Source: Promethearchaeia archaeon (lineage in GTDB: Archaea; Asgardarchaeota; Lokiarchaeia; Sigyniarchaeales; SOKP01). Taken from it: a stretch of DNA of 64,000 nucleotides. A program made the translations under genes and the position numbers. Positions 1,453 to 37,650 of the stretch are shown here, piece by piece (position 1 is the first letter of the stretch; the number at the start of each line of letters is the position of its first letter). A model generated the notes under the pieces. The model was not told the DNA's origin. It searched no databases and saw only the letters and a program-made list of their open reading frames with translations. The stretch spans positions 1-64,000 of the forward strand of contig JAHQWH010000189.1 of NCBI GenBank assembly GCA_029856105.1, written 5' to 3'.

Positions 1453-3474
1453 ATGGAAGAGTATTGGCAAACAAGAGTTAGAATTACTCAGATTCCGCTT
1501 GAAATTGAAAAGGAATTATTAGTGCATTTTGAACAGGAAAAGGATGTTTTGGTTAAAAAATCTTTTTTAGCGAATCCCTTTTTAGACCAGACAACGTATG
1601 GTTTAGAACTAGCGATAAATAACGATTTTTCTTGGACTTTTTTTTTTAGCGAAAAAAACGAAGAGGACGCTCTTGTCAAAGGATTTTCTTTCTTAAGTTA
1701 TTTAAAATCTCAATACATTGGTTTAACTGGAATAGTGAACGTAATTCCTATCACTTCAAAAGAATTAAGCCAGAGGCCAATACTATACGAACTGGTTATA
1801 CCTCGTAGACCTAAACCTTTTTCTATAATTAATAAAATCATTCAATTATTCAAAAGCTATAGGATTGGAGACTTGACCTTTTATATGTTTTGGGAGCGAA
1901 ACGATTCTATCAGCATACAACCGCCATATTACGACGGTTTAATAAGGGAATACTATAAACTTAAAATATTAATAAGTTATAGTCCTTTCCGAGTAAAGGA
2001 TGACAGTAAATTTATTTTTAACCAGCTTTTTAAAGGGATCCAAGAATTTCTAACCTTTGGTATTCGAGATATTGAAGGAATAAAAGCCCATTTTAAATTA
2101 ATCCCAGAGGTATTTTGGCGTAACATCTTAAAATCGGATGTAATGATATATAATTGGGACAATAAAATAACGGGTCGATTTTTTAGTACATACTGGGAAA
2201 GTCCCGAAATTCTTGAATGGCAACGATGCGCATTTGTGTACCCTGCTATGGTAGATTTCTCTTTTCCAGAAACTTGTACGATTCCCAAGGCTAACGTTTT
2301 AAAATCAATGAATTTAGAATATAGAGATGTGTCTAAAGACGACAAGAACTCCATTTGGATCGGGCGGATAATAAGTAATGGTATTCTCGAGAACAACCCT
2401 GCTACAATTCCAATTAGTCATTTTGGTAAGTCTGTTATTATTGGTGGCCAAATGGGGACTGGGAAAACTCGTTTACTTACATTAATTTCTCACGAATTTT
2501 ACAAGAAGGCGCCTCATATAGGGATCTTATATTTAAACATGGGAAAACCGAATCAGCAACATCTATATAAACACGATTCGTTTATTAAATACGGAAGTTC
2601 GGATTTGCAAATACCTTATTTTGTTGAAGGAGAGTTCATCGATAAATCAATTCAAGAAACAGCAACCTACCTTGCAGCATCTCTTGGTTTAAGAGAGCCA
2701 GTTGATAAAATTCTTAAAAATGTTATGAAGGCGTTCATAAAAGTTAACGGTTCGTTGCCTATTTCTCTTAGAACTTTGTTTAAGGGTTTAAGAAAATGGT
2801 ATAAGAAACATCCTTACGATAATAAATTTCAAACAAGAATCTTAACCGCGATAGAAAATCGAGTTTTATCTCTCGTATCAGACCCAGTTTTAAATAAGTG
2901 TACGCAATTAACTCCAGATTCAACAATTCCTCAATGGTTTCTGGATTGGAGGAGTGGAAAAAAGGTTTTTTTAGATTTATCCATGTGCGACGCGTACGTT
3001 AAATTATTGCTGGCGAGTTCGATATTTCAAATGATTCGAGCACTAACACCTGGATACGAAACAAATGGACTTCAACATTTAATCGTTATTGACGAAGCTC
3101 AAGCAATACTAGAAAAGTCAAAAGAGCGATTTACAAATTCTGATTTCTACATAGCGAAAGAGCAATTAGAAATGATTTTCAATAATTTATTGAGAGAATT
3201 CCGAAGTAAGGGACTAGGTTTTATTATTGTGAGCGTGACTCCTTCAGATTTGTTTGTTTCAACGACTAAGCTTCCAAGTATTAAAATTCTTTTTCGCATG
3301 GGGGAAGAATGCATAAGACGGTTTACTCACATGTTAGACGACCATAAATACTTAATGCTGTTAAAAGCTCGGCAAGCTTTAGTCTTAAATGGAAATAACG
3401 CAGACCGATTTTCGATTCAGACGATTACTGTTAAAACCAGAAAGATTAAATTACCTATAATTAAAGCTAATTAG
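1453..3474 (+). CDS. HerA/FtsK/VirB4-family P-loop ATPase
   Basis: Walker A GQMGTGKT, Walker B LIVIDEAQ, and REFRSKG arginine-finger region typical of HerA/FtsK. ATG at 1453 follows GTGAG. Confidence 0.75.
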   Translation: MEEYWQTRVRITQIPLEIEKELLVHFEQEKDVLVKKSFLANPFLDQTTYGLELAINNDFSWTFFFSEKNEEDALVKGFSFLSYLKSQYIGLTGIVNVIPITSKELSQRPILYELVIPRRPKPFSIINKIIQLFKSYRIGDLTFYMFWERNDSISIQPPYYDGLIREYYKLKILISYSPFRVKDDSKFIFNQLFKGIQEFLTFGIRDIEGIKAHFKLIPEVFWRNILKSDVMIYNWDNKITGRFFSTYWESPEILEWQRCAFVYPAMVDFSFPETCTIPKANVLKSMNLEYRDVSKDDKNSIWIGRIISNGILENNPATIPISHFGKSVIIGGQMGTGKTRLLTLISHEFYKKAPHIGILYLNMGKPNQQHLYKHDSFIKYGSSDLQIPYFVEGEFIDKSIQETATYLAASLGLREPVDKILKNVMKAFIKVNGSLPISLRTLFKGLRKWYKKHPYDNKFQTRILTAIENRVLSLVSDPVLNKCTQLTPDSTIPQWFLDWRSGKKVFLDLSMCDAYVKLLLASSIFQMIRALTPGYETNGLQHLIVIDEAQAILEKSKERFTNSDFYIAKEQLEMIFNNLLREFRSKGLGFIIVSVTPSDLFVSTTKLPSIKILFRMGEECIRRFTHMLDDHKYLMLLKARQALVLNGNNADRFSIQTITVKTRKIKLPIIKAN

Positions 3475-8859: not shown

Positions 8860-8923
8860 TACTAATTATATTAAATAAATCGACATTATTTTATGATATA
8901 TTATAAAAAATATAGTGTGTATT

Positions 8924-10492
8924 ATGTTTGTTGCTGCATTAGATTTAGGAACAACTGGTTGTAGAACATTTATTTTTGATTTAGCTGGAACTATAATCGC
9001 AAGCGATTATCAAGAATGGGAGAGTTTCTACCCTACGCCTTCCTATGTGGAACAGGATGCTAATGTGTGGTGGAAATCAATTAAAAGTACGATTGAGCGA
9101 GCAATAAAGAAGAGCGGGGTAGATAAAAGCGAGATTGTAAGTTGCTCAATTACCAACCAAATTTCAGAAAATTAATTTCTGGAAGGTCAAAGAGAAACAA
9201 TCGTACCTGTTGATAAGGAAGGAACTCCATTACATAACGCATTAGTTTGGCAAGATAGACGGACAACTGAACAGGTAGACTTTATAAAAAATAAAATAGG
9301 AATAGATAAAATTTATAGTACTACGGGTTTAACAATAGATCCGTATTTTTCAGCTACAAAGATTCTTTGGTTTAAAGACGAAAAGCCAGACATCTATCAG
9401 AAAACACATAAATTCTTGCTAGTTTCAGATTTTATAATCTATAAACTAACAGGAAAATATGTTAGTGATTTTAGTAATTTAAGTAGAACGATGTTATTTG
9501 ATATAAATAAACTCAAATATTCAGAAGATATTGCCTCTGAGTTAGAAATAGATTTGGATAAAATGCCAGATGCTATTGAAAGCGGAGTTGATATAGGAGA
9601 GATCGCTACAGAAGAGACTTTATTCGATAAAAAAACCTTGGTTGTTACAGGAGCAGGAGACCAACAAGCAGCAGCCCTAGGAGTGGGCGTCGTCTCTCCT
9701 GGGAGGATAAAATTAACGACTGGAACTGGAAGCTTTATTTTAGCTTATTTGGAAAAACCCAATTTCGACCCACAAAAGCGAGTATTGTGTAGTTGTCACG
9801 CAATCCCGGGGGCTTGGATCCAAGAAGCGAGTATTTTTACAAGTGGAGCTTTTCTAAGGTGGTTTAGGGACCAACTCGGAAGAGATGAATGCATAAAGGC
9901 TGAAGAACAAAATCAAGATCCTTACGTAATTCTAACGGAAGAAGCTGAAAAGTCTCCTATTGGGGCTAATGGACTATTAGCAATCCCCCATTTAGTTGGT
10001 GCTGGAGCACCATATTGGAATCCATATGCGAGAGGAATAATATATGGTTTATCTTTAGGTCATAAAAGGAGAGATATCGTTAGAGCGATTCTTGAAGGAG
10101 TAGCATTTGAAGTTAAAAAGAACATTGAAGTTTTTGGAGAGTTAGGGATTGAAACAAAAGAATTAAGGCTAACTGGAGGAGGGTCTCGCTCAGATTTTTG
10201 GAATCAAATTTATTCCGATGTATTAGGTTTAACATGCGTCAGAAATCTTATTGAAGAGGCTACATCGTTGGGAGCAGCAATACTAGCGGCTACGGGAGCA
10301 GGTTTGTTTTCAGATATCGCTAAAGCTGCCGAAAATGTGTGTAAAGTAGAAAATAAATGGAATCCTGATTTAAACCGACATGAGTTTTATCAAGATATTT
10401 ACCAATTATCGAATGATTTATACAAGTATTTAAATGAGAAAAATTTTTACAAAACTTACATCAATACGCTTCAAAATAAAAAATTAGTTTAA
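8924..10492 (+). CDS. FGGY carbohydrate kinase (glycerol kinase/xylulokinase-like), join(8924..9160,9191..10492), 512 aa after removing the putative intron
   Basis: DLGTTGCR, TNQ|RET, WQDRR, DPYFSATK, GDQQAA, TTGTG, GAGAPYW and TGGG motifs. Both ORF-track pieces are in the same frame, separated only by the TAA inside the 30-nt insert. Confidence 0.9.
9161..9190 (+). other. Putative BHB-type (tRNA-like) intron in FGGY kinase mRNA, 30 nt
   Basis: AACC-AA^A-TTTCAGAAA-ATTAA-TTTCTGGAA-GGTC-AA^A: 9-bp inner stem, two 3-nt bulges, central helix with 3 of 4 pairs, in-frame TAA in the loop. Removal gives AAC CAA AGA GAA ACA = NQRET. Confidence 0.8.
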
Positions 10493-36987: not shown

Positions 36988-37650
36988 ATGCATGGCATTG
37001 ATAAAATATTTATTGAAACTAATGAAATTAGGCTTGAAGCCGAGTTTTTTCAGTTGAAAAACTCGGTTGTTTTAATTTGTCACCCACATCCTCAATTTTT
37101 CTGGGTTTGAAACCCTAAAAAGGGAAAATATGGGGGCAATATGTACAACAATGTCGTATCTGGCGTTTTTAATATGTGTGTTCAAAATAAAATTTCATGT
37201 TTACGGTTTAATTTCAGGGGAGTAGGAAGTTCAACAGGAAGTCATACTAGTGGAAAGGGCGAGTTAAGCGATGTGGAAGCTTGTATTGATTTTTTAATAA
37301 CCGAGAAAAATATTGAAAAAATAATAATTTGTGGTTATTCCTACGGCGCTGCTATCGGGTGTTCTGTTGTAAATTTTTCTAAGAAAATAATTGGTTATTG
37401 TGCAATTTCTTTTCCTTGGGATTTTATGGGCTCAAAATATAAAAAACTTTCTCAAACTAAAAAACCAAAATTGTTTATTCAAGGGAATCGAGATACTATA
37501 GCACTCTATGAAAATTTTGAAAACCATTATAATTTCTATTTCGAACCAAAAAAGTATAATATTATTAATGGAGCCGACCACTTTTACTCGGGATTTGAAG
37601 AAAATGTCGCACAAGAAGTAAGCGAATTCTACAATTCGATTACAAAATAA
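36988..37650 (+). CDS. Alpha/beta hydrolase, join(36988..37094,37128..37650), 209 aa after removing the putative intron
   Basis: The ATG at 36988 is in frame (MHGIDKIFIET...ICHPHPQ|YGGNMYNNVV). Also RFNFRGVG, nucleophile GYSYG, QGNRD and ADHF. Confidence 0.9.
37095..37127 (+). other. Putative BHB-type intron in alpha/beta hydrolase mRNA, 33 nt
   Basis: CCCACA-TCCT-CA^A-TTTTT.CT.GGGTT-TGA-AACCC.T.AAAAA-GGGA-AA^A-TATGGG: 4-bp helix TCCT/GGGA, two 3-nt bulges, inner and exon stems, in-frame TGA in the loop. Removal gives CCT CAA TAT GGG. Confidence 0.85.

Follow-up and report, generated by a model that had tools for sequence, protein, structure and literature searches.

A candidate tRNA-type intron within the coding sequence of an FGGY-family kinase gene from a Promethearchaeia archaeon

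An FGGY-family sugar kinase gene is located on the forward strand of a 64,000-nt stretch of DNA from a Promethearchaeia archaeon (positions 1 to 64,000 of contig JAHQWH010000189.1, assembly GCA_029856105.1), which is referred to at its full length as the window and whose genome is labeled G000. The gene runs in one frame from its start codon to its terminal stop and is divided, within the motif TNQRET, by a 30-nt insert that contains an in-frame stop codon (Table 1). The insert and its flanks can be drawn as a relaxed bulge-helix-bulge (BHB) motif, and the insert is predicted to be an intron removed from the mRNA by the tRNA-splicing endonuclease EndA and the ligase RtcB.

Table 1. Features of the kinase gene and its insert, with related loci (window coordinates, plus strand, unless a C-prefixed contig of G000 is given)
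Feature	Position	Strand	Remarks
FGGY-family sugar kinase gene	8924-10492	+	One frame from ATG 8924; terminal stop 10490-10492
Exon 1	8924-9160	+	79 codons ending ...SCSITNQ; GlpK profile positions 2-79
Insert, predicted BHB intron	9161-9190	+	30 nt; cuts predicted at 9160/9161 and 9190/9191; in-frame TAA 9173-9175
Exon 2	9191-10492 (coding to 10489)	+	433 codons plus stop, starting RETIVP...; GlpK profile positions 80-479
Distal exon-exon helix, GUUGCUC/GAGAAAC	9141-9147/9192-9198	+	6/7 pairs, across a loop
Central helix, 5′ strand AACC	9155-9158	+	Exon bases; pairs with 9185-9188
5′ bulge, AAA	9159-9161	+	Invariant in all carriers; cut predicted after 9160
Inner hairpin h′	9162-9184 (9162-9170/9176-9184)	+	9 bp, loop AUUAA; one G-U pair, U9164-G9182
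Central helix, 3′ strand GGUC	9185-9188	+	Insert bases; C-G, C-G and A-U formed with AACC
3′ bulge, AAA	9189-9191	+	Invariant in all carriers; cut predicted after 9190; exon-side closure only C9154-G9192
Predicted junction of the spliced kinase mRNA			ACCAACCAA joined to AGAGAAAC; also written ATTACCAACCAA joined to AGAGAAACAATCG
Predicted tryptic peptide of the spliced kinase			SEIVSCSITNQR
Same-site inserts in G088 and G090			33 nt
Same-site insert in G112 (SCS4bin.30)			33 nt
Same-site inserts in G078 and G079			30 nt
Alpha/beta-hydrolase insert	37095-37127	+	33 nt; gene from ATG 36988; splits HPHPQ from YGG
Elf1 BHB insert	C191:74089-74120 (outside the window)		32 nt, frame-breaking; gene from 74014; in the first CxxC
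EndA alpha	C107:10900-11502
EndA beta	C12:8929-9534
RtcB	C191:86017-87324		Intact

Gene structure and RNA geometry at the insert

Translation across the insert reads SCSITNQ, ISEN, stop, FLEGQ and RETIVP in succession, the TAA of the insert being the sole internal stop. Removal of the insert rejoins ITNQ with RET and gives a 512-aa kinase, a length shared with ~130 intron-less orthologs, and the 1539 nt left after excision match seven close intron-less orthologs, each of which has that length. When the two exons were compared to the NCBIfam GlpK profile, exon 1 stopped at position 79 and exon 2 began at position 80, with neither loss nor overlap. Thus, the frame, the stop position and the product length bear out the original prediction of a one-frame gene with 30 extra nucleotides splitting TNQ from RET, while the profile and the ortholog lengths agree with its claim that the predicted cuts restore NQRET and a complete kinase. 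TNQRET is a substrate-binding motif in glycerol kinases. The best whole-length NCBIfam match was XylB (xylulokinase) at 358.6 bits, below the cut-off of 380.25, with GlpK at 333.8 bits (cut-off 590); relatives carry PF00370 and PF02782 (FGGY_N and FGGY_C). These profile matches and the domains of the relatives support assignment as a member of the FGGY family only.

In the predicted pre-mRNA, exon bases AACC would pair with insert bases GGUC, and the 9-bp inner hairpin, with the TAA stop in its AUUAA loop, would stack on that helix, leaving an AAA bulge on each side. An EndA of (alpha-beta)2 composition would cut after the second base of each bulge, RtcB would join the exons as ...ACC AAC CAA followed by AGA GAA... 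to encode TNQRET and the 512-aa enzyme, and the intron would be released, probably as a 30-nt circle. A CAAA direct repeat (9158-9161 and 9188-9191) means that four different excisions would give the same product, from which the BHB rule selects 9161-9190. The geometry first proposed for this site, namely a 9-bp hairpin with a TAA loop, two 3-nt bulges and a helix of three pairs plus one A-C mismatch, was recovered in full. The weak exon-exon stem proposed along with it was likewise found (GUUGCUC/GAGAAAC, across a loop), with the addition that the helix adjoining the bulge consists of the single pair C9154-G9192.

Compared with the strict motif, the G000 insert has both 3-nt bulges and a 4-bp helix containing a mismatch, and is therefore relaxed rather than strict. 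Its flanking helices are a strong h′ (9 bp) and an h made up of the one adjoining C-G pair and the distal 6/7 helix, for which pair probabilities are mostly 0.76-0.83 and only 0.39 at U9143-A9196; this distal complementarity is also present in intron-less relatives, as read from their sequences by eye. With its A-C mismatch and weak outer helix, the motif corresponds to the relaxed HBh′ class of BHB. Processing of such a motif would need an endonuclease of broad specificity, the type carried by Asgard and TACK archaea.

Distribution, covariation and selection

The distribution of the insert was examined across 42 genomes of the genus and 154 genomes of the order, together with a scan of GTDB genomes and a pattern scan of metagenome contigs. 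The genus-wide search identified one further carrier, G042 (Promethearchaeota archaeon Loki_b31, NJBI01000047.1), whose insert is identical, and the pattern scan recovered three metagenome contigs from different samples with an insert of the G000 type; the samples are Ga0114930, Ga0209977 and Ga0209121. Five genomes from three other genera have stop-bearing inserts at the same site, and these belong to two further sequence types (Table 1). The carriers total 12 sequences: seven genomes from four genera, the three metagenome contigs, and two records duplicating G042 and G090. No insert was present in the orthologs that could be read from 24 further genomes of the genus and from 16 additional ones in the order; absence was likewise recorded for 39 same-genus genomes and ~130 orthologs in the order. 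Since the insert is shared by a second species and by independent assemblies and samples, it is neither an assembly artifact nor private to G000. A blastn-short search of G000 found no other copy in the genome, indicating that the insert is not a repeated element, and Rfam has no family at the site. At 30-33 nt, the insert has no room for an endonuclease ORF; neighboring genes were not examined for endonucleases. The predicted kinase intron is old and patchily distributed.

The three sequence types share little sequence beyond a short AUUUCU motif (seen by eye), with AAA/AAA bulges at the same positions in all three. The central helix consists of C-G, C-G, A-U and the A-C mismatch in type A (that of G000), of C-G, U-A, A-U and A-U in type B, and of C-G, C-G, A-U and A-U in type C, so that all four positions pair in types B and C. 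The replacement of the second C-G pair by U-A in type B links an insert base to the third base of the exon Asn codon, where the change is synonymous (AAC to AAU). The inner hairpin has 6-10 contiguous base pairs across carriers, except in G078 (6/8 pairs), and both sides vary at seven of its eight aligned pairs across the three types. On alignment A1, 94.9% of cells pair, compared to 79.6% in shuffled sequences (0/500 shuffles reach the observed value), both sides change at 8/13 pairs, and a control in which pairing partners were shifted by 1-3 columns reduced pairing to 24-64%. The comparison of orthologs that the original prediction had proposed as a check yielded both presence/absence variation and covariation.

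The peptides that the inserts would encode are unrelated between types (ISEN-stop-FLEGQ, ISV-stop-DFFPKD-stop, ISV-stop-NFFPKD-stop, and one ending in a stop), and the type B insert holds two stops. As judged by these alignments, the insert is conserved at the level of RNA structure. This bears on the possibility that the insert is retained in the mRNA, with its stop read through to add 10-11 residues or with two polypeptides assembling into the enzyme. Although an insert length divisible by three in every carrier (30 or 33 nt) would suit such retention, it hardly accounts for unrelated peptides, two stops in type B, the split between TNQ and RET, the lack of a start codon or ribosome-binding context after the insert, or conservation at the RNA level, and retention is regarded as exceedingly improbable.

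Selection on the gene and on the insert was assessed from comparisons between alleles. Among five alleles of the G000 type, 10-16% of codons differ pairwise, synonymous changes greatly exceed nonsynonymous ones, and there is no further lesion in any allele covered to its end. For G000 and G042, dS is 0.219, dN 0.020 and dN/dS 0.09, in the same range as the 0.10-0.14 obtained against intron-less orthologs. For G078 and G079, both carriers from genus g17, synonymous sites are saturated (pS 0.71), yet dN/dS is 0.05; for G112 and G090, dN/dS is 0.08. Overall, dN/dS between carriers is 0.05-0.09, a sign of strong purifying selection, and internal stops are confined to the insert, the reading frames of all carriers being otherwise intact. 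In a comparison of four full-length G000-type alleles, the insert varies at 1/30 sites (the first loop base), as compared to 30% of 4-fold degenerate sites (P ~3e-4), and the 51 nt across the 5′ splice site form the longest run without variation in the whole kinase gene. From these substitution patterns, the kinase is functional in lineages that have long carried the insert, and the insert itself is under constraint.

An inactivated gene, whether a decaying pseudogene that took up a neutral or newly arisen disabling insertion or the product of an assembly error, would agree with an in-frame stop inside a catalytic motif and with the lack of the insert in most orthologs. However, the occurrence of the insert in independent assemblies and samples, the low dN/dS between carriers (including one synonymously saturated pair), the lack of other lesions, and an insert that varies less than 4-fold degenerate sites do and whose structure covaries all argue against this explanation, which is scarcely credible.

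Splicing enzymes, other mini-introns and competing explanations

The EndA genes of G000 are two paralogs, with products of 200 and 201 aa, and its RtcB gene is intact. EndA alpha aligned best to the catalytic subunit from Aeropyrum pernix (3P1Z_B, E 3e-34), the alignment extending through the Crenarchaea-specific loop, and has a conserved lysine at what we take to be the Lys44 position. The second paralog resembles the M. jannaschii enzyme. Asgard archaea carry an (alpha-beta)2 EndA with an L1 loop and broad specificity that cuts relaxed motifs (PMC5829648). Only 22-23 tRNA genes were detected in G000 with Rfam RF00005 and ARAGORN, for a genome that is 92% complete, and many of those detected have ARAGORN-predicted introns of ~10-58 nt. 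These results suggest that many further tRNA genes in G000 have several introns or noncanonical ones.

Two other coding-sequence mini-introns were identified in G000. An insert in an alpha/beta-hydrolase gene within the window is present in 17 species of the genus, with lengths of 30, 31 or 33 nt that break the frame in three; a full BHB is found at identical boundaries in 17/17 species, variation in its hairpin is compensatory, and the insert is precisely lacking in seven further species. In the ortholog L048, the outer-helix pairing pattern is 100110, matching the weak outer helix of the kinase intron. Minimum free energy (MFE) folding was rejected as a criterion for BHB introns because several orthologs of this well-supported intron also miss the BHB by MFE. 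The other mini-intron interrupts Elf1, where removal of the frame-breaking insert restores ...FTCPNCGEK.... Given the hydrolase and Elf1 introns, the economical interpretation for this lineage is that mRNAs are spliced by the tRNA machinery. Stops in FGGY paralogs were also considered as further introns and discarded: the two G000 paralog hits checked, and the ortholog in G001, proved to be terminal stops that had been read through.

A rival to splicing that has its own precedents is translational bypass, in which take-off at CAA 9158-9160 with peptidyl-tRNA-Gln and landing at CAA 9188-9190 would skip the 30 nt. Programmed bypass is exemplified by T4 gene 60 and the mitochondrial byp elements, and in G000 and its closest carriers a CAA both precedes the insert and ends it, with the stop-bearing hairpin between. 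However, types B and C end in TAA before exon 2 and so offer no matching landing codon; the stop is four codons past the take-off site rather than adjacent to it, the codon after take-off being AUU; the conserved 3-4-3 geometry of exon-insert pairing is not required by bypass; and the hydrolase and Elf1 inserts lack matched codons, with some of them breaking the frame. No translational bypass is known in archaea, and this explanation is considered most improbable. Likewise very unlikely is removal by a mechanism other than EndA and RtcB (e.g., another RNase with a ligase), or a role of the insert as a regulatory hairpin or conditional off-switch that is seldom spliced. The imperfect BHB of G000 and its weak outer helix would leave room for such a route, but the conserved features (3-nt bulges, a 4-bp helix and frame-restoring cuts) are hallmarks of EndA substrates, and no other archaeal system is known to excise such elements.

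Several observations weigh against EndA-mediated splicing of the kinase insert. The central helix in G000 has only three pairs plus the A9155-C9188 mismatch, and, in every carrier, only one pair (C9154-G9192 in G000) makes up the helix that adjoins the 3′ bulge. RNAfold favors a different register, in which ACC 9152-9154 pairs with GGU and leaves a 7-nt bulge, at ~74% of the ensemble; the BHB register makes up ~12% and is 1.4-1.8 kcal/mol less favorable. The motif in G000, taken alone, would prove little. The covariation rests on just three sequence types, and, with only these three independent, the support that it provides is good and not overwhelming. A de novo genome-wide screen for BHB geometry combined with excision joining two open frames returned thousands of hits, with no enrichment over decoy geometries (2-4-2, 4-4-4, 3-3-3 and 3-5-3), and yields no intron count; this lack of specificity arises because adjacent genes, which the screen is unable to tell from introns, dominate the hits. 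Finally, no exact match to the spliced-junction peptide of G000 was found among 5.8 billion predicted proteins.

Chance is an insufficient explanation for exon profile positions that abut at 79 and 80 and for a geometry that two other insert types, located at the same site, repeat with covariation. The proposal of a spliced mRNA with a relaxed BHB, rather than a pseudogene, is supported by conservation, covariation, selection, the encoded enzymes and the mini-introns of the same genome. Positions 9161-9190 very probably constitute a relaxed BHB mRNA intron in the coding sequence of the FGGY kinase, which would be spliced out by the predicted cleavage and ligation.

Exon mosaic and relation to known systems

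In a tree of the whole gene, the carriers fall in four separate clades amid intron-less relatives, and the two exons of individual carriers differ in their affinities. In exon 2, identity between G000 and its nearest intron-less relatives is 91-95%. In exon 1, G000 is only 68-84% identical to the closest of these relatives, L066 (depending on the segment compared), and no more than 82% identical to any intron-less ortholog. The divergence of G000 and G042 from their nearest relatives is ~25% in exon 1 vs ~5% in exon 2, and pS between G000 and L066 drops from 0.80 in exon 1 to 0.15 in exon 2. The maximum chi-square test places the breakpoint 6 nt away from the intron site, a value that 0/300 permutations reach, and the contrast between exons was not seen among intron-less relatives. 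G112 has a foreign tract of ~540 nt extending across the intron, and its exon 1 finds its nearest counterpart in G090, a carrier that groups in another clade; these two genomes have a common 5′ exon and 3′ exons of different clades. Comparison of the alleles suggests that the intron and its 5′ exon are jointly moved or maintained by recombination. Tentatively, the intron and its 5′ exon might form a laterally exchanged module, in which a BHB intron that has no endonuclease of its own would be mobilized by recombination with exon replacement.

Intron-less relatives are homologous only from the kinase start codon onward, the sequence at 8860-8923 of the window and farther upstream being different; within the 1.5-kb flanks they share none of the upstream genes, among them one for a 1790-aa acidic repeat protein, and the upstream flank differs between carriers as well, as exemplified by the close carrier L069. 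The kinase is thus located at a synteny break, at the edge of a variable region. An integrated element bringing in a replacement 5′ exon was considered and rejected, as no displaced second copy of exon 1 is present in the assembly and the upstream flank varies between carriers.

The best match to the junction peptide, P0003, covers 93% of the peptide and is an intron-less SCSITNQRET allele from a distant metagenome-assembled genome (MAG). With its 5′ exon DNA only 73% identical to that of G000, P0003 is not the donor of G000 exon 1. The intron-less gene L137 (Ga0366832_1000144, gene 1501-3042), from a distant Promethearchaeota MAG, encodes the carrier residues SCSITNQRET through different codons, so that this residue signature can occur apart from the intron. 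Candidate explanations for L137 are a precise loss of the intron or a Cys variant that is older than the intron.

The closest precedent for the kinase intron is the BHB intron of the cbf5 pre-mRNA in Crenarchaeota (Watanabe 2002; Yoshinari 2006; Yokobori 2009, PMC2738675; as described in PMC7714728 and PMC5829648). As of 2020, cbf5, which encodes a pseudouridine synthase, was the only coding sequence with a reported BHB intron, to which a 5′-UTR case in Haloferax was added (PMC7714728). The two systems have in common a short intron in an archaeal protein-coding sequence, a BHB at its boundaries, a hetero-oligomeric endonuclease in the host, and patchy occurrence among relatives. Unlike cbf5, the present case concerns a metabolic FGGY kinase from Promethearchaeota (Asgard), an intron of 30-33 nt, a relaxed motif, a foreign 5′ exon, and splicing that is predicted only. 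The 5′-UTR intron of Haloferax volcanii HVO_1309 likewise makes an mRNA the substrate of the tRNA-splicing endonuclease (a prediction for the kinase); there, splicing was shown in vivo and in vitro (PMC7714728), in contrast to the kinase intron, which splits a catalytic motif and whose removal is deduced.

Noncanonical tRNA introns of Asgard and TACK archaea (HBh′/hBH; PMC5829648; bioRxiv 10.64898/2026.10.13.758758) resemble the kinase intron in size class, 3-4-3 geometry, tolerance of weak flanking helices, and the presumed enzymes. They differ in that the kinase substrate is an mRNA, whose exons must therefore encode protein as well: the 5′ strand of the central helix is the Asn codon plus the first base of the Gln codon. 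The kinase insert also resembles bypass elements (T4 gene 60 and the byp elements of Magnusiomyces) in having a stop-bearing hairpin between matched codons, a likeness restricted to the G000 type; the other two types lack matched codons, and exon-insert pairing and 3-nt bulges are not features of bypass.

The preprint on tRNA introns in Asgard archaea makes no mention of mRNA (bioRxiv 10.64898/2026.10.13.758758), and a literature search found no report of tRNA-type introns in Asgard protein genes. The most novel part of the present case is the exon-intron mosaic. A metabolic gene of Promethearchaeota would need tRNA-splicing enzymes to make its protein, as would several more genes in the same genome. 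If confirmed by RNA data, these predictions would mean that Asgard archaea, the archaeal lineage closest to eukaryotes, routinely splice mRNAs with EndA and RtcB, enzymes that eukaryotes use in HAC1/XBP1 mRNA splicing. The combination of presence/absence polymorphism with an exon mosaic offers a tractable case for the study of intron gain, loss and movement, and, if the intron and its 5′ exon do travel as a module, this could offer mRNA introns a way to spread and to persist, and could be a primitive form of exon shuffling. For genome annotation, genes bearing introns of this sort are liable to be split or truncated by gene callers.

The relatives are Promethearchaeota MAGs, consistent with the placement of this DNA in Lokiarchaeia; several close orthologs are labeled as Hod-, Hermod-, Thor- or Odinarchaeota. 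One ortholog, L076 (DATKTW010000106.1), is labeled "Candidatus Nanopelagicaceae bacterium" and is 80% identical to the archaeal gene; its bin is probably mislabeled or contaminated.

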